In this document: one piece after another, positions 161 through 15,968 of the stretch
Position numbering within the stretch: the stretch's first letter is position 1
How the letters are laid out: the number at the start of each line of letters is the position of its first letter
The notes under the pieces: model-generated
The model's database searches: none
What the model was told of the DNA's origin: nothing
Seen by the model: only the letters and a program-made list of their open reading frames with translations
Translations under genes and position numbers: made by a program
Origin: an uncultured bacterium
Lineage (GTDB): Bacteria; Muiribacteriota; UBA6191
Direction of reading: 5' to 3'
Assembly: GCA_964503595.1 (NCBI GenBank)
Contig: CAZDAM010000063.1
Span: 1-20,349, forward strand
Length of the DNA: 20,349 bases

Positions 161-1159
161 ATGAAACCATCCATTCTGAGTTCGGCTGAACAGAAGTTTG
201 TTCAGGAACGCATCCTTGGTGTGCGTCGACAGCAATTGGAAGGGCTCAGTCAGGATCATGTCCTGGCGGAATTTTTAGCTACCTGTGCCACGGAAAGTGT
301 AATTGTAGCCTTTGAAAAGGATGGAACCAGGGTTGCCTGGAGCCAGAAAACCGGCTTTGAGGTTCAATTCGCTCCCGACTTCCTGAATGATAACGCTCAG
401 CTGGCCCAGTGCTTCCTTAAGGTGCGAAAAGCGTTTTTTGAGGATCTTCTGGACGAAGAAGCCCTGAAAAGTCTGGTCGGTACCAGAGTTTCAGAAGGTG
501 CTTCGGCAATGAAATTCGAGACTTCTGTTCCCCAGGCGGCAGAACCGGTTGCCGAGGAAGCTGCCCCAGAACCAGAACCAGAACCAGAACCAGAAATGGT
601 CGAAGAAGAATTGGTTGAGGTTGAAGGGGAAGAGGAACTTCTTGAGGAAGTCGCTCTTTTCGGGGACGAAGAAGAGCCGGTAGCTGAGGAGGAAGCAACT
701 TCTGAATCAGACGAGGCTTTGGCTGAAGAAGCACCTTCTGAAGATGTGGCAGGGCCGATTCCGGAAGAGGCTTTGACTGATCTTGAGGATGATTTTGATC
801 CGGATGCCATGCTGGCAGCTGTCAGCGATGCCAACAGTACGATTGAAATTGATGAAGACGCTGCCCTGGCAGCGGATGAGTTCTCCAATCTCTCGGCTGG
901 GGACGATGAGGTTCACGGGGCTCATCACATCGAGGAAGCGCCTGTCGTGGAAGAACCTGAAGCTTCTGCTGAGGCTGAGCCCGAAAGCCCTGGAGAGCCG
1001 GAAGCTCCTGTATCCAGCGGGGATCCGATTGAAGACTTGAAAGCTGAAATGATTGCCAAGGGTATGGATGAGGCTAAAATGAACAAGCTTCTGACCGCCG
1101 TGAAATCAGGTCGGGCTACGGTCGATGCCGTACGCCAGACCCTGCAAAGAGCAGGTTAA
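161..1159 (+). CDS. Hypothetical highly acidic protein. It has a folded N-terminal domain of about 120 aa, a long Glu/Asp/Pro/Ala-rich disordered linker and a short helical C-terminal module.
   Basis: ATG at 161 has GGAGT 7 nt upstream. The 332-aa ORF has strongly skewed composition, including an (EP)5 run encoded by ccagaa x5. The antisense ORFs at 397-928 are low-complexity mirror artefacts of the same stretch. Confidence 0.6.
   Translation: MKPSILSSAEQKFVQERILGVRRQQLEGLSQDHVLAEFLATCATESVIVAFEKDGTRVAWSQKTGFEVQFAPDFLNDNAQLAQCFLKVRKAFFEDLLDEEALKSLVGTRVSEGASAMKFETSVPQAAEPVAEEAAPEPEPEPEPEMVEEELVEVEGEEELLEEVALFGDEEEPVAEEEATSESDEALAEEAPSEDVAGPIPEEALTDLEDDFDPDAMLAAVSDANSTIEIDEDAALAADEFSNLSAGDDEVHGAHHIEEAPVVEEPEASAEAEPESPGEPEAPVSSGDPIEDLKAEMIAKGMDEAKMNKLLTAVKSGRATVDAVRQTLQRAG
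566..595 (+). repeat. Perfect hexanucleotide microsatellite (ccagaa)x5 inside the acidic-protein CDS, encoding EPEPEPEPEP.
   Basis: Direct reading shows five tandem ccagaa units. They are in frame, so slippage would change the EP-repeat number without a frameshift. Confidence 0.9.
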
Positions 1160-1221: not shown

Positions 1222-1593
1222 ATGCGAAAAAAACTGATTCGTTTTGACTGGGCGATCAAGAAAATCTTTCGTGAAGTCTCCGCTCTTTACCCTGAATACC
1301 GGCTGATCAATGTGGCCCGTTTCAATGAAATCGCCCGGGTTCCGCTCGATGAACGGATTCATTTCTTAAAAACGGAAGAGATCAAGCCTGATTCTCAGGC
1401 TCCGGGTCTTCTGGATGTGGCCGAAGCCCTAAGCGTTTTAAAGCTCTCCGATAAGGACAGCCGTGCCTCCACTTTGGCCCTTCAGGATGGGATTCTATCT
1501 GAGGAACAGTTCAGGCATAAAATAAGGGAGAATCTAGGTCGGGGTTTTGATGATCTGGTGTATTCCTATCTTGAACCTTTGGAGGAAAAATGA
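1222..1593 (+). CDS. Hypothetical 123-aa protein with a C-terminal SHOCT-like motif (LALQDGILSEEQFRHKIRENL). It is the first gene of a coupled four-gene operon.
   Basis: ATG at 1222 follows AGGTGA. Its stop TGA (1591-1593) overlaps the ATG (1590) of the next gene. The L-x-x-G-x-L-S-x-E-E-F-x-x-K pattern resembles the SHOCT short C-terminal domain. Confidence 0.5.
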   Translation: MRKKLIRFDWAIKKIFREVSALYPEYRLINVARFNEIARVPLDERIHFLKTEEIKPDSQAPGLLDVAEALSVLKLSDKDSRASTLALQDGILSEEQFRHKIRENLGRGFDDLVYSYLEPLEEK

Positions 1594-2059: not shown

Positions 2060-2494
2060 ATGAAATATAAATCTCCTCCTTTGAGAAAGAAGAATCCCGG
2101 TATGAAGATTGATGATTCGATTTCTCAACAGGATCGCCAGAGTCTTTGTGACAAGGTTCAGTATGTGGGAAACCCGGTGCATAAACGGAATCCGGGTGAT
2201 TTTGGCCTTATTCCTCCCAGTGCAGCGAAATATCCTAAGACACTTTGTGATCCTACGGGTATTTTTCGCAAGGAAGATGCGTTGAAGGTCATGCAGGATG
2301 GAATTCGCCACGGGCTTGTAAGTCAGAGTTATGAGGGGGAGTTTCCCCGCCTTGTCTGGGGTATTCATCATCATGGCGAGAGCTGTTTTGTGCTTGAGTT
2401 TCGTTTGGATTCAGTTCAGGGAACTTATCATGGATATCCTTTGCAGAAGATGGATGCTCGTTATCAGGAAGTTTTGAAGAAATGGAAAAACTGA
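2060..2494 (+). CDS. Hypothetical 144-aa Cys/His-containing protein (SLCD..TLCD..GIHHHGESC) with no recognisable family. The start is uncertain; ATG 2102 is an alternative.
   Basis: The ORF-track version (1982) overlaps the MAPEG gene by 76 nt. An internal ATG at 2060 lies 2 nt after the MAPEG stop, and another at 2102 has a purine-rich upstream. The 3' end overlaps the next gene by 13 nt. Confidence 0.4.
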   Translation: MKYKSPPLRKKNPGMKIDDSISQQDRQSLCDKVQYVGNPVHKRNPGDFGLIPPSAAKYPKTLCDPTGIFRKEDALKVMQDGIRHGLVSQSYEGEFPRLVWGIHHHGESCFVLEFRLDSVQGTYHGYPLQKMDARYQEVLKKWKN

Positions 2495-3759
2495 GTTTTT
2501 TGATTGACTGGCTGAATCCAGACCCGGCTGAAAAAAAATTGCTTTTGTCTTCGACAATGGCAGATTTTGGCTTGCGAGGGATGGGAAAAGATTTTTTTTC
2601 ACATCTGAATAGCCTGGATGGTGGCAAGAGAGTTCAGTCGAGGTTACAGACTTCTCTATATCTGGTAGGTGACTGGTTGTCCGAACATTTCTGGCGTATG
2701 GCATATGAACCTGCCAAAGGATATGATTTAGCTGAATCTTCTTATGATTGGTTAAGGGCTCATTGCATGGTTTCAATTGGCAGGGGGTATTGTTGGCCTC
2801 ATCTGTTTTTTTATGGAGATGGAGATTCAGTAACTGCTGAGCTAAAAAATTTTCCAAAAGAATCTGTGATTCCTCTTCACTTTATAGAGGAGGGAAGTGT
2901 CCAGATTTCTCATCAGGAGTTTTTTACTTTGGTGTTGGAGTTTCTGGGAAAAATTCAGGAGAGATTGAAAAGTCAGAAGCTTTCAGATGAAGGTTTTTCT
3001 TTGGATCTGAAAAGCCTTATAGAAGAATGGAAAGATATAGATTTTCATCAGTATCGTCGTTTGGAAGCCTGTATGGGATTGGGGATTGATGAAAATCCTG
3101 ATTTTGTAGGAAGCGTTTTATCCCTTTTTGATGAATCTTCCAGGCTGGAAGATGTCTGTGAAATTGTGAGTGATGTCAATTTGGATAGTTCTGGGTTAGC
3201 ACAACTTCAGGATACTTTTCAGATTTTGCGAGATAAAGCAAATTGTGATGTTTCGGTCCTGAAAAACTGGGATACATCTGGTGCAAAACCTTCGATTCAT
3301 ACTGCTTATCAGTGGGCCAGGATTCTAAGGGAAAAACTGGACATTGATTCAGGGGCGGTTTCTGAAAAGCATTTTTCCGATCTTTTACAACTCCAGGTTG
3401 GCAAGGGCTTGGAGAAATTACCAGAAAATGCATGCTTTGGTATGGGGGAATTTCAGCCGGATGGCAAGGGATCCCTTGTTCTGACAAAAAAGCACCCAAG
3501 CAGTAAGCGTTTTCAGTTAGCGCGGCTCATTGGAGATTTTGTGATGTCTCATCAGGATTCCAGTCTGCACATAGCGGGAGAAACCTATTCCATGCGTCAA
3601 AAGATGCAAAGAGCCTTTGCCGCAGAGTTTTTGTGCCCGGCAGCTGAGCTTGAATCTTCCTATGATCCCCGCAACCGGGAGGATTTTATTTCTTCCAAAG
3701 CGATAGAGTATTCCGTATCAGAACTCGTGATTCAGCATCAGGTAGACAATTCATTTTAG
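2482..3759 (+). CDS. Hypothetical 425-aa protein with a C-terminal ImmA/IrrE (DUF955)-like module in which the HEXXH and downstream Glu zinc-ligand positions are all substituted, so it is a predicted pseudo-metallopeptidase.
   Basis: ATG at 2482 has AGGAAG upstream and overlaps the upstream gene's end. The C-terminal KRFQLARLIGDFVMSH ... QRAFAAEFLCP aligns to the ImmA/IrrE pattern rFTLAHELGHlllH ... E-ANaFAAELLMP, with H>R, E>L, H>D and E>Q/R at the ligand positions. Confidence 0.65.
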   Translation: MEKLSFLIDWLNPDPAEKKLLLSSTMADFGLRGMGKDFFSHLNSLDGGKRVQSRLQTSLYLVGDWLSEHFWRMAYEPAKGYDLAESSYDWLRAHCMVSIGRGYCWPHLFFYGDGDSVTAELKNFPKESVIPLHFIEEGSVQISHQEFFTLVLEFLGKIQERLKSQKLSDEGFSLDLKSLIEEWKDIDFHQYRRLEACMGLGIDENPDFVGSVLSLFDESSRLEDVCEIVSDVNLDSSGLAQLQDTFQILRDKANCDVSVLKNWDTSGAKPSIHTAYQWARILREKLDIDSGAVSEKHFSDLLQLQVGKGLEKLPENACFGMGEFQPDGKGSLVLTKKHPSSKRFQLARLIGDFVMSHQDSSLHIAGETYSMRQKMQRAFAAEFLCPAAELESSYDPRNREDFISSKAIEYSVSELVIQHQVDNSF

Positions 3760-4955
3760 GGAGCCTGAATGATCATGTTTTCCACAACGAAGTTGGTGAC
3801 AACAGGTTGCTGAAACTGGGAGAAATTCAGCTGGGGTAAATCAAAAGTGGCCTTCAGGGAAACTCCCTTGAAGAAGTCTGCAGTTCCACCTGCTTTTGTA
3901 ATATAGGGCTGAATGGCGAAGTCCAGCCTCTGGGGCGAGTTGGAGCTAGCTCCATCCGTGGCATCACCATACCCTCCACTGGAATTCGGTGCATTGGTAA
4001 TAGATGCACTGTTTCCGGCAATCGTCCGGTAGCCGGCTGAGATGGAGGCGTTCAAAGGGATATAGGCTCCCATATTGCCCGCGGTTTCCGTTCTGATTTC
4101 AAAAGAAGGAGTATTGGCATAGGCATAATGCTCATTCGGGTTGGCTTGATTTCTCAGATCAAAACTGAAATTTCCGTTATAGCTCTGCAATTGGGAGAGC
4201 TGGGAGAGCTGAATCTTCAAAGCATCCGGCCAGTCGGCAAGATTAAAATCGGTCACAGGACTGATATAGGCAGTGGATCCCACAATTTTGGAAATGTAGC
4301 CGGGCTTGTCGCCAATTGCAATCTGGGGACGGTTCAGGCGGGAGGCACCACTTCTTGAAATGATGTCAAAGGTATTGGAAGGTCCCATGGCAATCCAGTA
4401 GGCCCGGTTTGGAGTCAGCTCCACCAGAGGGGAAACAGAAGTCAGGGAATTATAGAACTGGGTGGAAAGCTGATTTGGAGAATGGATGAAACCAAGCCAG
4501 CGGTTGCCTTCCACGGTCATAATGGCGTGAATATGACCAAGAGATGCGTGCTGGGCCACAAATGCCGAAGTGCTGATGGTGGTCTGGGTCAAAGCCCGAA
4601 GCTGCCAGCCATACCTGTATTCCAGGGCAGGGAAAGCTTCTGTACTACAGCCTGAATCCATGGCATAAGTCCATTCCTGATTCGCGGAGACATAGTAGCC
4701 GTCATAGGCCTTGAGGGATTGGATTGCGTTGTATGAAGTAGCGGTAGGAGTGCTGTTTCCGGAATAGTGCGTAAAAATGCGCGAAGTTCGGGATATATGC
4801 CAGGCCGAGGTGATTTTGGAGGCTCCGGCACCAAAGGCTGCTGTTGCGGTTCGCGTACAGGGCAGACTTACCAGGGTGGTTCCCGTGGGAAGGGCTGCTG
4901 TCTGGGTGATCCCGGAAAACAGCAGGCCGATAAGAGTGATGATGAAGCGATGCAT
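3756..4955 (-). CDS. Secreted Ser/Thr/Asn/Gly/Tyr-rich protein (399 aa), probably beta-rich, of unknown function.
   Basis: ATG at 4955 has AGAGGAA 5 nt upstream. The N-terminus MHRFIITLIGLLFSGITQTAALP is a signal peptide. Its stop overlaps the stop of the convergent 2482-3759 gene by 4 nt. Confidence 0.65.
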   Translation of the reverse strand: MHRFIITLIGLLFSGITQTAALPTGTTLVSLPCTRTATAAFGAGASKITSAWHISRTSRIFTHYSGNSTPTATSYNAIQSLKAYDGYYVSANQEWTYAMDSGCSTEAFPALEYRYGWQLRALTQTTISTSAFVAQHASLGHIHAIMTVEGNRWLGFIHSPNQLSTQFYNSLTSVSPLVELTPNRAYWIAMGPSNTFDIISRSGASRLNRPQIAIGDKPGYISKIVGSTAYISPVTDFNLADWPDALKIQLSQLSQLQSYNGNFSFDLRNQANPNEHYAYANTPSFEIRTETAGNMGAYIPLNASISAGYRTIAGNSASITNAPNSSGGYGDATDGASSNSPQRLDFAIQPYITKAGGTADFFKGVSLKATFDLPQLNFSQFQQPVVTNFVVENMIIQAP

Positions 4956-5075
4956 GGTATGTTCCTCTAAGAGCTTTTTTTAGGCTGACAGTGTACCGTA
5001 TTTGTAAATATTTCAAAAAAACAAGTTTGACCTGCTCGACGGATTTTACAAGTGGGGCATTCATGAGGGTGGAAA

Positions 5076-6983
5076 TTGGCTAAGCTGCGCGAAATGGAAA
5101 TCACCCTGGAGCCTGATTGGGTCGGGGATATTTTTGCCCTGCTGCCAGCAGATTTTTCCTGGGACAGGCTGCATTTTCTTCATTTTCAGAAAAGTGGTCT
5201 TTCGGAGTGGCTGGCCCAGCGCGAGGAAATTCTCTACGCCTTTGAGCGATCCTACCCACGTCTCCACGAAATCGTTTTTGATCCCCGCTATCAATCGGGT
5301 GCTCTTTGTCGGTACCAGGTGTCAGGGCATCCATTGGCAGATTCCAGAGTCATGGAGGAGAGCAATTATCAGCCTCCGGGAATGCTTGGATTCACCAATC
5401 AGACTCACTGGTCCGTGCTTCCTCCTTTATTGAAAAAGGGAGATGTATTTGAGTCGGGGGTGCTTCTGAATACTCACTCGATGAGGTCTTTTCCTCCTGC
5501 CTTCTACCGTAATTTTCAGATGAATTCTCCTTATGGGCTCTGGGTTGCGGTTTTGATTTCCAAGGAGATTGTAGAAGAGTTTCGGATTCATCCCTGGAAT
5601 CTGAGCTTTCTCATCGAAGGAGCAGAGATTGAGGAGGGGCAAGTATGGGTTTTTGAAATTCCGGGAGCCTCATTCATGAACGAGGAAAATCCTGAATTAT
5701 TGGGTCTTGATGATGATGAGTCAAGGCCACGGGTTCAGGTGAGCCGCATTTTGAACTGGCAGACCTGCCAGGAGTGGATGCGTCGGGAAGTCTGTTGGGA
5801 GAAGGAGCCCTGGAAGGAAGAGCTCGGGATTCCTGATGAGCTTCAGTCCGATTTGTTGGAGGAGGAGTCCCTGGAAGCCCAGGCGAGTCTTCTAACCCGC
5901 TATGTGGCAGAAGGGATTCGAAGCTTTGCAACGGGGCTGTCCTTTGAAGCCTGGCCAAATGAAGTGCTCAGGCGGGGTTATGGGAATCCTCTGGAAAAGG
6001 CTGTTTTGCTGAAGGCTTTGCTGGTTCAGCATCAGATTCCCTGCACTCTCATGATGGCTTCGGTCAATGCCAGTTCCATGGTGCCTTCCGAGTTGCCTCA
6101 TCTGGACTTTCCAAGGCCTCTGGTGAGCGTGGAGCTGACTCCGGGGCAGCGAAAAATTCTGGATCCTTCGATTCCGATCTGGGCTGGGCTTCGCAGTGAA
6201 CGGCACTGGGCAGGAGCGGAGATTCTACCTCTGGAGTCCAGTACGGTTCTGAAGCCGTTTCGGCTTTGGGTCTCTCCTTCGGAAGGCTCCAGTCTGAAAT
6301 GGGAGATTCAGTGGAAGGCCAGCGCCAGGGATGATGAGCTGGATTGGGTTCAGATTCGTGAAACTCTGGGAGGGGTAGAAGCGCGTCGTATTTTTGAACG
6401 CTGGGGTAAATGGGATTTGAAGGAGCTTGGCAACCATCGCCAGCAGGAACTCGATTTCTGTTTTATCCGGGGTTCGGAATTCAAACTCAAGCGCATCACT
6501 TTGGAGCGGGACGGGGAGTTTGCGATTCTTCAGATTGAAGGGGAGCTTCACCGGGGATTTCAGATTCTTTCCAACGGAAACCGGGTCCGGGGTTTCTGGT
6601 TTGCTCCGATTCGAGGGTATTTTCATACTCTCTATGGCAATGGAACCCGTACCAGAGGAATTCGCTGTGAGCCACTTGCCATGGAAATGGAGCTTGAATT
6701 TCAGCATTCCCAGATGGTTGAGATTCCGGTGGATCCGTTTCAGTGGTCGTATGAGGGTATGGATTTGACCTGGTCTCAGAAGTTTGAGGCCCCACAAAAA
6801 AAATCCCGGGCTGTGATGAATCTGGAAGTCAATCGCTTCAATCTTTCTCATGAGGCCTATTCTTCTCAGATGGAGCGGTTCAAGAACTGGGCGGATTCGG
6901 GTCTGCCGTTTTTCTGGGAATCCCGGCCCCCGATGCTGCGTCGGGTGATTGATTCCTGGAAGAATCTGTTCGGGATGAATTAA
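5076..6983 (+). CDS. Large cytoplasmic protein (about 635 aa) with a transglutaminase-like (papain-fold) core flanked by N- and C-terminal domains. The catalytic Cys position is occupied by Pro, so it is predicted to be non-catalytic.
   Basis: TTG at 5076 has GAGGGTGG 8 nt upstream; ATG 5094 is the alternative start. RRGYGNPLEKAVLLKALLVQHQIPCTLM matches the transglutaminase-like/DUF3858-type pattern G-x-G-x-C-x-D-x-A-x-L-L-x-A-L-L-R-A-x-G-I-P-A-R with C>P. There is no signal peptide. Confidence 0.55.
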   Translation: MAKLREMEITLEPDWVGDIFALLPADFSWDRLHFLHFQKSGLSEWLAQREEILYAFERSYPRLHEIVFDPRYQSGALCRYQVSGHPLADSRVMEESNYQPPGMLGFTNQTHWSVLPPLLKKGDVFESGVLLNTHSMRSFPPAFYRNFQMNSPYGLWVAVLISKEIVEEFRIHPWNLSFLIEGAEIEEGQVWVFEIPGASFMNEENPELLGLDDDESRPRVQVSRILNWQTCQEWMRREVCWEKEPWKEELGIPDELQSDLLEEESLEAQASLLTRYVAEGIRSFATGLSFEAWPNEVLRRGYGNPLEKAVLLKALLVQHQIPCTLMMASVNASSMVPSELPHLDFPRPLVSVELTPGQRKILDPSIPIWAGLRSERHWAGAEILPLESSTVLKPFRLWVSPSEGSSLKWEIQWKASARDDELDWVQIRETLGGVEARRIFERWGKWDLKELGNHRQQELDFCFIRGSEFKLKRITLERDGEFAILQIEGELHRGFQILSNGNRVRGFWFAPIRGYFHTLYGNGTRTRGIRCEPLAMEMELEFQHSQMVEIPVDPFQWSYEGMDLTWSQKFEAPQKKSRAVMNLEVNRFNLSHEAYSSQMERFKNWADSGLPFFWESRPPMLRRVIDSWKNLFGMN

Positions 6984-14549: not shown

Positions 14550-15833
14550 TCAGACAAACTTCTTCACATCGGAAAAGGGGGGTCCCGGTTTTGCGAACAG
14601 GTAGCCCTGGCAGTAGTCCACTCCAAGCTCCTGTAGCTTGCGGTACTCGGAAACCGTCTCGATTCCCTCGGCAATCGACTTGGCATTGATGGACTTGGCA
14701 ATATTTAAAAGCGCGGTAATCATGGTCTGCTTCAATGGATCGGTATCTACATTGCGGATCATGGAAATGTCGATCTTGATGTAGTGAGGCTTGATTTTGA
14801 GAATGGTCTCAAAGCTTGAATAGCCGGTTCCTGTATCATCCAGAGCAATCTGGTAGCCCTCGGATGTATAGCGGCCAATATCCTCGATAAAGGATTCGTA
14901 ATTCTGAATAGCCAGGCTTTCGGTAATCTCAAAAACCAGGTTTTCCGGATTCAGGTTGTACTTGGCCAGTATTTCCTTCAGATAGACTTCCCTGAAATAG
15001 GTTTCATGGATGGTTGTGGGAAGAGCATTGATGAAAAGTTTTAGCTTGGGATTCATGGCCACGGCATTGTCCACGGCTTTCTTGCGGCAGACATTGTCAA
15101 GCTCGAAAAGAAGTTCGGATTCCTTGGCAATCTCGAAAAGAAAGAGCGGATTGAAGAATTCTGTGCCTTCCGGGCCACGACTCAGAGCTTCATAGCTGAA
15201 GATTTCTCCGGAATGGGAATCGACCATGGGCTGATAAACGGTGCGGATATCCTCATCCAGAATAATCTGCTGAAGGGTTTCCTTATAGCGGATTTCCGTG
15301 TGGTAGACATGGAAGGTCGACATCAGACGGGCTTCTTCAATCGCCCGGTAAATCATACGCTGGGGATTGAGCAGGGAGTTTTTGACAATGAAGCTGTAGC
15401 CAATGCGCAACTTGGGCTTACGTTTGAGCCATTTGTAGGTAGTAAAGAAGATGCCGCTTGAGATGTGGGCATGGATCCGACGGGCAATGGTTTCCAGATC
15501 GTTTTTTCGGGAGCCGCCGATATTGCGCTTCTTGGAAAGAATGATCAGGAAAGCATCATCAAATCCATGGCATTTCAAAATCAGGTCCGATTTTCTAAGA
15601 TATTTTCCCTGAAGACCGAGAATGGTACGGGTGACATCGCGTTGAATCGAGTCATAGACTGCAGCACCGTAGTCGTTTTCGATTTTGACCAGGTTGTAAA
15701 CATCCAGGTAAATGACGGCAAGGGAACGCTGAGCATCAAAAAAATTCAGTGCTTTCTTCATCGAGTGGGGGCCGAGGATGGGAAGTCCGGTGACTTCGTC
15801 CAGTAGTTCGGTCTGTACTTCGTTATCTTGCAT
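14550..15833 (-). CDS. c-di-GMP phosphodiesterase with a degenerate GGDEF domain (HGFDDAF in place of GG[DE]EF) followed by an intact-looking EAL domain.
   Basis: ATG at 15833 follows AGGAA; the TTG at 15896 is rejected. The GGDEF-type start is DEVTGLPILG. EAL motifs are YQPMV, YEALSR, DDTGTGYSS, IKIDISMI, IAEGIET and QGYLFAKP. Confidence 0.85.
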   Translation of the reverse strand: MQDNEVQTELLDEVTGLPILGPHSMKKALNFFDAQRSLAVIYLDVYNLVKIENDYGAAVYDSIQRDVTRTILGLQGKYLRKSDLILKCHGFDDAFLIILSKKRNIGGSRKNDLETIARRIHAHISSGIFFTTYKWLKRKPKLRIGYSFIVKNSLLNPQRMIYRAIEEARLMSTFHVYHTEIRYKETLQQIILDEDIRTVYQPMVDSHSGEIFSYEALSRGPEGTEFFNPLFLFEIAKESELLFELDNVCRKKAVDNAVAMNPKLKLFINALPTTIHETYFREVYLKEILAKYNLNPENLVFEITESLAIQNYESFIEDIGRYTSEGYQIALDDTGTGYSSFETILKIKPHYIKIDISMIRNVDTDPLKQTMITALLNIAKSINAKSIAEGIETVSEYRKLQELGVDYCQGYLFAKPGPPFSDVKKFV

Positions 15834-15968
15834 CGGGAGGTCATTCCTTTCCAGGTGATAGCTTTCACGGTAGCGGATCGTGCCCGGATTGAGCAACCAT
15901 TGACAGCCACGGGATGCTTGGAATTTGGCAAATTGATGGGATATAAGTCAGGTTTGGTCTATAGAATC

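Follow-up and report, generated by a model that had tools for sequence, protein, structure and literature searches.

The 20,349-nucleotide stretch of DNA analysed here (the window; contig CAZDAM010000063.1 of assembly GCA_964503595.1) comes from an uncultured bacterium of the lineage Muiribacteriota and carries two overlapping genes on its forward strand. The larger encodes a 425-amino-acid (aa) acidic protein whose C-terminal module is, as judged by sequence alignment, a genuine homologue of the ImmA/IrrE (M78) zinc peptidases, with every metal ligand and the catalytic Glu replaced. The smaller, directly upstream, encodes a 144-aa basic protein. The favoured explanation, held with moderate confidence, is that 2060-2494 and 2482-3759 together form a mobile toxin–antitoxin-type cassette: the large acidic protein would act as neutraliser, with an M78-derived domain that works without catalysis. 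The features concerned are as follows.

2060-2494, forward strand: partner gene, encoding a 144-aa basic protein (isoelectric point, pI, 9.3), a putative RNase-like toxin of the barnase/EndoU/colicin/RelE (BECR) fold
2482-3759, forward strand: large gene, an open reading frame (ORF) encoding a 425-aa acidic protein (pI 5.1), a putative antitoxin or sensor
2482-2976, forward strand: N-terminal domain (about aa 1-165), predicted CdiI-immunity/Whirly/PUR (sPC4L) type fold
2977-3282, forward strand: middle helical region (about aa 166-267), very acidic (pI 4.1)
3283-3756, forward strand: M78 (ImmA/IrrE)-like domain without metal ligands (about aa 268-425), the C-terminal end of the protein
3508-3537, forward strand: RFQLARLIGD (aa 343-352), counterpart of the RFTxAHELGH active-site helix
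3523-3525, forward strand: R348, in place of His1
3526-3528, forward strand: L349, in place of the catalytic Glu
3535-3537, forward strand: D352, in place of His2
3595-3639, forward strand: RQKMQRAFAAEFLCP (aa 372-386), counterpart of the IE..AN.FAa.LLMP helix
3598-3600, forward strand: Q373, in place of the third-ligand Glu (CapP IEAQAD, IrrE IETLCN)

Homology of the C-terminal module to the M78 family is faint in the window protein and real at the level of the family. Against the Pfam profile PF06114 the window protein alone is sub-threshold (E 0.052, 13.8 bits, cutoff 22), although residues 336-420 are correctly in register with positions 36-121 of the 123-position profile; matches at E<=1 are found in 19 of 35 homologues, the best at 9.4e-6. 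The significant similarity to this profile that a sequence-only reading of the same DNA had proposed as a check is thus present in the family and missing from the window protein taken by itself. The RmrA model of PADLOC also matches in part (aa 335-421 against profile positions 182-262 of 363, E 5.8e-4).

HMMER searches of PDB sequences with the family profile, both at full length and restricted to the C-terminal domain, matched no M78 protein and returned chance-level or helix-turn-helix (HTH)-like matches only. The ligand columns were therefore mapped through the sequences of M78 proteins with solved structures, fetched via a consensus-like query: IrrE (3DTE), PprI (8SLM), CapP (7T5T), 9VZY and PrpR (6D2S). 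Against this reference set, hhalign gives the family's C-terminal domain a probability of 94.7% and an E-value of 6.2e-8 over 95 columns. The ImmA/IrrE scaffold with its AFAAEFLCP block, which the sequence-only reading had placed at 3508-3639, is borne out, and the strings lie at those coordinates.

In the hhalign columns, KRFQLARLIGD pairs with MRFTQAHELGH of CapP, while RQKMQRAFAAEFLCP pairs with CapP IEAQADLFASYLLMP (IrrE: IETLCNVGAAALLMP), the AFAAEFLCP block falling on LFASYLLMP. The claim that every metal-ligand position is substituted holds, with R348, L349, D352 and Q373 in the respective columns. The third ligand had been given as Gln/Arg; it is Gln373 specifically that takes its place, and R377 occupies the column of a conserved Asn/Asp. 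The modelled helices that carry the two motifs span residues 339-355 and 371-384, as expected of a gluzincin-type site.

With none of the three metal ligands left and the catalytic Glu also replaced, the aligned columns indicate that the C-terminal domain is incapable of canonical zinc binding or peptide hydrolysis; the simplest interpretation is a role in binding without catalysis. The earlier proposal of a binder that cannot act as a zinc enzyme agrees with this and has precedents. PrpR contains a DUF955-like (IrrE-like) domain without HEXXH (PMC6765138), and Rir, a COG2856 protein, inactivates the repressor Crh without cleavage (PMC6868357).

The substitutions extend across the whole family. 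Conservation was scored in 118 aligned homologues and in a set of 146 sequences made up of 145 cluster representatives (50% identity) and the window protein, with the following counts.

R348: 118 of 118 homologues; 146 of 146 in the representative set
Q373: 118 of 118 homologues; 146 of 146 in the representative set
Q376: 118 of 118 homologues; 145 of 146 in the representative set
R377: 117 of 118 homologues; 145 of 146 in the representative set
E382: 118 of 118 homologues; 137 of 146 in the representative set
D352: 111 of 118 homologues; D or E in 138 of 146 in the representative set

Conservation of D352 and E382 thus lies at 85-100%. At position 349 almost all members have a hydrophobic or aromatic residue (L, F, I, V, Y), with His in 3 of 118, and basic residues near the replaced site (R343, R372, K374, R377) are likewise kept family-wide. 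HEXXH occurs nowhere in the 118 homologues. A copy of the motif elsewhere in the protein had been named as the finding that would overturn the ligand loss; only two strays exist, one in the 146-sequence set and one among the proteins of the 81 loci described below, and both lie off the active-site helix. The family-wide invariance of the substitutions rules out a one-off degenerate paralogue. Nor does the picture of a classic decayed pseudoenzyme fit the invariance or near-invariance of R348, Q373, Q376 and R377. Because the replacing residues are so strongly constrained, the pattern points to a site re-purposed and remodelled under selection rather than to simple loss or decay.

The family itself is large. 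Homologues of the 425-aa protein number in the hundreds, are full-length (425-460 aa) and share 22-30% identity. When 1.84 billion cluster representatives were searched with the family profile, 3,933 clusters (at 50% identity) matched at E<=1e-3 and 1,663 at E<=1e-30, with lengths almost always of 425-460 aa. Pfam, NCBIfam, PHROG and PADLOC hold no model for the family, and literature searches turned up no paper describing it. Eight homologues (P0012, P0013, P0017, P0025, P0031, P0034, P0041 and P0081) carry NCBI or UniRef names, either "ImmA/IrrE family metallo-endopeptidase" or "M78 family metallopeptidase domain-containing protein". As the members examined are without metal ligands, such names do not fit and likely represent systematic over-annotation.

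One metagenomic cluster (P0317, 634 aa) shows an apparent fusion of a pentapeptide-repeat domain of about 190 aa (Alr5209/HetL/Qnr-like, E 5e-11) to the N-terminus of a complete family protein, which may be genuine or may stem from an error in gene calling. Pentapeptide-repeat proteins such as those of the Qnr/MfpA type are DNA mimics.

Strict invariance of this kind raises the question of whether the M78-derived domain could still be an enzyme with a different chemistry, built on R348, D352, Q373, Q376, R377 and E382, perhaps together with E76, H94 and E227. Such an enzyme might, for example, be a hydrolase undoing a modification that the partner introduces, in the style of type IV or type VII antitoxins. 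Many polar residues are indeed strictly invariant although family members are only about 25% identical to the window protein, and the compact multi-domain model could bring distant invariant residues together. Yet the protein shows no known catalytic motif, has no Pfam, NCBIfam or PDB sequence match outside the M78 homology, and has a hydrophobic or aromatic residue at the catalytic-Glu position in nearly all members. A re-invented enzyme is therefore regarded as improbable.

The genomic context defines the pair. Loci were collected with one genome per species; more than 505 relatives were returned, and the best 80 loci together with the window give 81. Their sole conserved neighbour is an ORF of about 140 aa directly upstream on the same strand, detected by BLASTP in 57 of 81 loci. 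With a hidden Markov model (HMM) of the partner the count rises to 76 of 81, always directly upstream and co-directional, with a median overlap of 16 nt. Partner-positive loci span more than 10 phyla, and the loci include Myxococcota, Acidobacteriota, Proteobacteria, Cyanobacteria, Verrucomicrobiota, Planctomycetota, Chloroflexota, Firmicutes and others. The remaining neighbours vary (histidine kinases, ABC transporters, epimerases, and occasionally HipA, Uma2 or AAA_14). The two genes are thus adjacent, co-directional and overlapping in otherwise variable contexts, in the manner of type II-like toxin–antitoxin (TA) pairs.

The distribution is patchy and bears the marks of horizontal transfer. 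It covers many phyla, and the family is found on 5-7 plasmids. In the window, the pair has a GC content of 0.42-0.44 and a GC content at third codon positions (GC3) of 0.38-0.41, against GC3 values of 0.55-0.64 in the flanking genes. No homologues occur in 50,697 phage records. Foreign GC, plasmid occurrence and variable contexts together are the signature of a free-standing, horizontally mobile two-gene cassette.

On one plasmid of Massilia sp. H6 (L081, NZ_CP103373.1, locus 3762-5326) the pair lies between dptH, a gene of DNA phosphorothioation-dependent restriction, and a gene for a patatin-like phospholipase; the partner there is annotated as an 80-aa hypothetical protein.

These loci also bear on the idea, put forward by the sequence-only reading, that a dead ImmA/IrrE protease serves as a decoy or binder of an XRE-type repressor or antitoxin and is tied to the membrane protein encoded upstream.

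1590-2057: MAPEG gene, adjoining the pair in the window genome only

Loss of the ligands is real, canonical M78 proteins do target XRE repressors, and the window genes are tightly packed after the MAPEG gene. However, across the 81 loci no neighbour other than the 144-aa partner is conserved, be it MAPEG, XRE or any other window gene, and the pair is foreign in GC3 against the MAPEG gene (0.55). The supposed operon with MAPEG is thus an adjacency peculiar to this genome, and the place assigned to an XRE-type substrate is taken by the product of the ORF at 2060-2494. The neighbourhood analysis largely refutes this reading, which is the least probable of those considered.

The start of the partner gene deserves comment. 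ATG 2060 lies 2 nt past the MAPEG stop, and at its other end the partner gene overlaps the large gene by 13 nt. The public gene call (P0121, 130 aa) begins at Met15, 14 codons late, while the version in the ORF list reaches back to GTG 1982 and overlaps the MAPEG gene. ATG 2060 is the likelier start because a conserved segment with N12 and an "NPKRR"-type motif lies upstream of Met15 (2060-2101).

The partner family has no Pfam, NCBIfam, PHROG or PDB sequence match, and its database entries are all "hypothetical". Its invariant residues are Y35, G37, H41, K42, P45, G46, C63, S88, P96, W100 and E113, followed in the C-terminal part by Y123, H124, G125, Y126, P127 and W142. The AlphaFold2 (AF2) model has a predicted local distance difference test (pLDDT) score of 83.4 with a confident core at about aa 70-144, in which a helix (71-83) precedes three long antiparallel strands (98-127) and a final helix at the C-terminus. 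Although conserved, the N-terminal segment is poorly ordered (pLDDT 53-55 at aa 41-60). The best structural neighbours of the model are nearly all RNase toxins, listed here with their scores.

CdiA-CT, 5T87: 5.5
CdiA-CT, 6CP9: 4.4
YxiD-CTD: 4.2
Salmonella TA toxin, 7VD7: 4.0
Colicin D: 3.5 and 3.4

The predicted structure thus weakly resembles the BECR-fold RNase toxins.

Two further observations concern the partner. Its C-terminal strand-helix (YHGYP…W; 2393-2488, aa 112-143) has a weak match, in 5 of 39 partner members (best E 0.0065), to the C-terminal end of NsnC, a Menshen component in PADLOC; this may reflect a shared small structural unit or chance. An apparent 1,046-aa partner fusion at one locus (L029) was rejected as an artefact of a high-GC ORF.

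In the 425-aa protein, the sPC4L-like N-terminal domain is followed by a helical linker and then by the zinc-less M78-like domain. The AF2 model of the whole is confident (pLDDT 90.1; predicted template-modelling score, pTM, 0.90), and the M78-like part, with a pI of 6.3, is less acidic than the protein as a whole. No Pfam or NCBIfam match was found in the N-terminal 270 aa of the window protein and 35 homologues. The fold of the N-terminal domain, which had gone unmentioned in the sequence-only reading, is recognised structurally. Foldseek matches it to 5FFP with a probability of 0.99, and the model contains the repeated beta4-alpha unit (beta4-alpha x2, Whirly/PUR-like) that characterises sPC4L. 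This fold groups 5FFP, 4NTQ_B, PurA, MRP and Whirly, and is used either to bind nucleic acids or as an immunity scaffold that binds toxins (PMC9424270). Invariant residues of the domain are W65, W71, E76, W90, H94, W105 and P106.

The middle region is modelled as helices (176-251) and gave neither a structural nor a family match. It carries a YRRLEAxLGxDxDE motif (R192, E195, A196, G199), and alignments show R192, E195 and E227 to be invariant in this acidic linker.

A separate XRE-type HTH was not found in the large protein, and the HTH signal from Pfam is inconsistent. HTH_17 matches occur in only 3 of 35 homologues and were set aside as spurious, as was a match to PF03241 HpaB (E 0.0019, below cutoff); both probably arise from ordinary helices of the M78 domain.

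The favoured explanation, a toxin–antitoxin-type cassette, can be drawn in some detail. The small basic protein would be the effector, probably an RNase of the BECR class according to its model, with E113 and H124 as candidate catalytic residues. The large acidic protein would neutralise it. Its N-terminal domain is the likely toxin-binding module, because CdiI immunity proteins block CdiA toxins with the sPC4L fold. The C-terminal domain descends from the ImmA/IrrE zinc peptidases, with Arg, Leu, Asp and Gln for His, Glu, His and Glu. Since the replacing residues and the neighbouring basic cluster are kept family-wide, the former substrate cleft is most likely retained as a putative binding site. 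Speculatively, the conserved coil-like N-terminal segment of the partner (aa 33-66) may lie in it as an uncleavable pseudo-substrate; alternatively, by analogy, it may take up a trigger ligand such as a single-stranded nucleic acid, since CapP and PprI are activated by single-stranded DNA (ssDNA) and the equivalent region of PrpR is a pocket for coenzyme A (CoA).

In view of published precedents, the overall scheme is of an ordinary kind. ImmA is a hub domain among antitoxins, often with the toxin gene first (PMC10440598), and COG2856 proteins are often found in operons with RelE and PIN toxins (PMC2701414).

Several observations support this assignment of roles. The pair is asymmetric in charge, as is typical of toxin and antitoxin: the small protein has a median pI of 9.2, the large one of 5.1. 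The best structural neighbours of the small protein are nearly all RNase toxins, and the N-terminal domain of the large one matches CdiI immunity proteins. The two genes also differ in their fate. Of the 81 loci, 68 have an intact small gene and 3 have it cut by contig ends; in about 10 of the 78 evaluable loci the large gene is intact while its small neighbour is frameshifted, truncated or missing (L006, L010, L019, L032, L037, L041, L047, L055, L067 and L070), a count that is biased because the loci were chosen for an intact large gene and errors in metagenome-assembled genomes (MAGs) can mimic frameshifts. A broken small gene beside an intact large one is the pattern expected if the small gene is harmful and the large one protective, and the ten loci are either "orphan antitoxin"-type remnants or MAG assembly errors.

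The same evidence bears on a reversed polarity, in which the 425-aa protein is toxic or the effector and the 144-aa protein is its antitoxin or regulator. The poorly ordered N-terminal segment of the partner resembles the wrapping segments of antitoxins, and the many invariant polar residues of the large protein would suit an effector. The charges run the other way, however, as do the toxin-like model of the small protein, the immunity-protein-like domain of the large one and the decay of the small gene alone, and reversed roles are judged very improbable.

Some points, beside the bias in the decay count, weigh against the favoured explanation. Polar residues are invariant across the whole 425 aa (E76, H94, E227, R348, Q373), which looks more like an enzyme or a ligand sensor than a passive plug. 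Immunity proteins are usually fast-evolving. A DNA-binding HTH for autoregulation was not found in the large protein. Finally, enrichment in defence islands is not convincing: PADLOC, run on 148 neighbouring proteins, recovers 2 Septu PtuA, 4 PDC-S03 and 2 PDC-S01.

A rival explanation is a sensor-effector arrangement resembling abortive infection, in which the remodelled, Arg-rich M78 pocket would bind ssDNA, RNA or a nucleotide and thereby release or activate the small effector. This reading overlaps with the favoured one and differs in assigning to the M78-like domain the job of sensing rather than plain neutralisation. It draws on the invariant basic and polar cluster (R343, R348, R372, Q373, K374, Q376, R377, E382) and on the relatives of the domain. 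CapP and PprI are switched on by ssDNA bound near the active site or in an inter-domain groove, and the equivalent region of PrpR forms a CoA-binding cavity (PMC6765138). In Whirly, PurA and MRP, moreover, the fold of the N-terminal domain binds single-stranded nucleic acids, and a few loci adjoin Dpt or Septu defence genes. Set against this, the large protein is acidic overall and even its M78-like part lies below neutrality (pI 6.3), the 148 neighbours show no systematic association with defence islands, phage records hold no homologues, and PADLOC models give nothing apart from the partial RmrA match. A dedicated sensor is accordingly considered rather unlikely.

A bolder proposal, about as doubtful, would make the pair a large unrecognised class of conflict system. 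Here the ImmA/IrrE domain would have become a metal-free sensor or trap in which the guanidinium of Arg348 replaces the zinc and is held by Asp352 and Gln373. The cleft would either clamp the N-terminal peptide of a new RNase toxin family or read a nucleic-acid or nucleotide signal of infection or damage and so release the toxin. If true, this would be a mechanistically new form of toxin gating, derived from a protease switch.

The ImmA/IrrE/CapP peptidases act as switches in the induction of prophages and integrative and conjugative elements (ICEs), in the radiation response of Deinococcus and in many anti-phage operons. Against this background, a very large and phylogenetically scattered family that keeps the M78 fold while its metal site is replaced by another strictly conserved set of residues is of general interest. 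It corrects a widespread database name and adds, beside PrpR, a second and much larger example of an M78 domain working without catalysis. It also offers a clean two-gene system for asking what role the substrate cleft of a protease plays once cleavage is impossible. Should the small protein be confirmed as a toxin, the pair would represent both a new toxin family and a new antitoxin architecture, combining an sPC4L immunity-type domain with a dead protease. Pseudo-enzymes and ImmA-type antitoxins as such are already known; what stands out here is the family size, the strictly conserved substituted site and the misleading name.

Other genes of the window can be described briefly. ORFs 161-1159 (forward), 1222-1593 (forward), 3756-4955 (reverse) and 5076-6983 (forward) encode 332, 123, 399 and 635 aa and have no significant Pfam, NCBIfam or PADLOC match, the 635-aa ORF giving only a chance-level BcsB match (E 0.26). 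The first two run in the same direction as the MAPEG gene and the pair and are tightly packed with them, with successive gaps of 62, -4, 2 and -13 nt. The 476-aa product of 9010-10440 (forward) matches the major-vault-protein (MVP) "shoulder" (PF11978, E 7e-7) and SPFH/Band 7, and looks like an SPFH-family protein with an MVP-shoulder-like module. A GGDEF-EAL protein is encoded at 14550-15896 (reverse); its EAL match is strong (E 4.5e-53) and its GGDEF match weak and partial (E 2.9e-5), which may indicate a degenerate cyclase domain.

Among known systems, the M78 ImmA/IrrE/CapP zinc metallopeptidases (MEROPS M78, PF06114, COG2856) share with the 425-aa protein the fold and domain homology. The His, Glu, His and Glu of these enzymes are replaced, typically by Arg, Leu/Phe, Asp and Gln, in every family member examined. 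The 425-aa protein further differs by an extra N-terminal part of about 270 aa and by having neither a GAF domain nor an XRE partner. Lacking HEXXH, the third ligand, a match above the Pfam threshold and the XRE partner, it does not belong to the functional M78 metallopeptidases.

RosmerTA (NetFlax D25), which combines the antitoxin RmrA with diverse RmrT toxins, is likewise a two-gene cassette with an ImmA-type antitoxin, often toxin-first, an arrangement that would apply here by inference. RmrA is a protease-domain antitoxin that often has an N-terminal HTH (PMC10440598). The 425-aa protein has no metal ligands and no HTH, carries an sPC4L-type N-terminal domain, and keeps a single fixed partner family in place of many toxins. 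Because the profile match is partial (only about 80 of 363 positions) and both HTH and ligands are missing, the 425-aa protein is, on its sequence features, probably not RmrA.

PrpR/RamB combines an XRE HTH, a DUF955-like domain and a GAF-like domain binding [4Fe4S]/CoA, and only the HEXXH-less M78-like domain is common to the 425-aa protein. Both the N-terminal HTH and the C-terminal GAF-like cluster-binding domain are absent from the latter. The replacing residues of PrpR (T/Q/L) are unlike those of the present family, and PrpR is a metabolic transcription factor rather than a member of a two-gene cassette.

The sPC4L immunity proteins, Burkholderia dolosa CdiI/Imm23 (5FFP) and Enterobacter cloacae CdiI (4NTQ_B), share their fold with the N-terminal domain. 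That domain has no Pfam match and so is not a member of their families at the sequence level, and it is fused to a C-terminal extension of 260 aa. Its partner is a stand-alone cytoplasmic protein and not the tip of a secreted CdiA. The partner core in turn finds its best structural neighbours among the BECR-fold RNase toxins (RelE/ParE, colicin D, BrnT and the CdiA-CT tRNases), and, like these, the partner is small, basic and encoded in an overlapping operon with an acidic protein.

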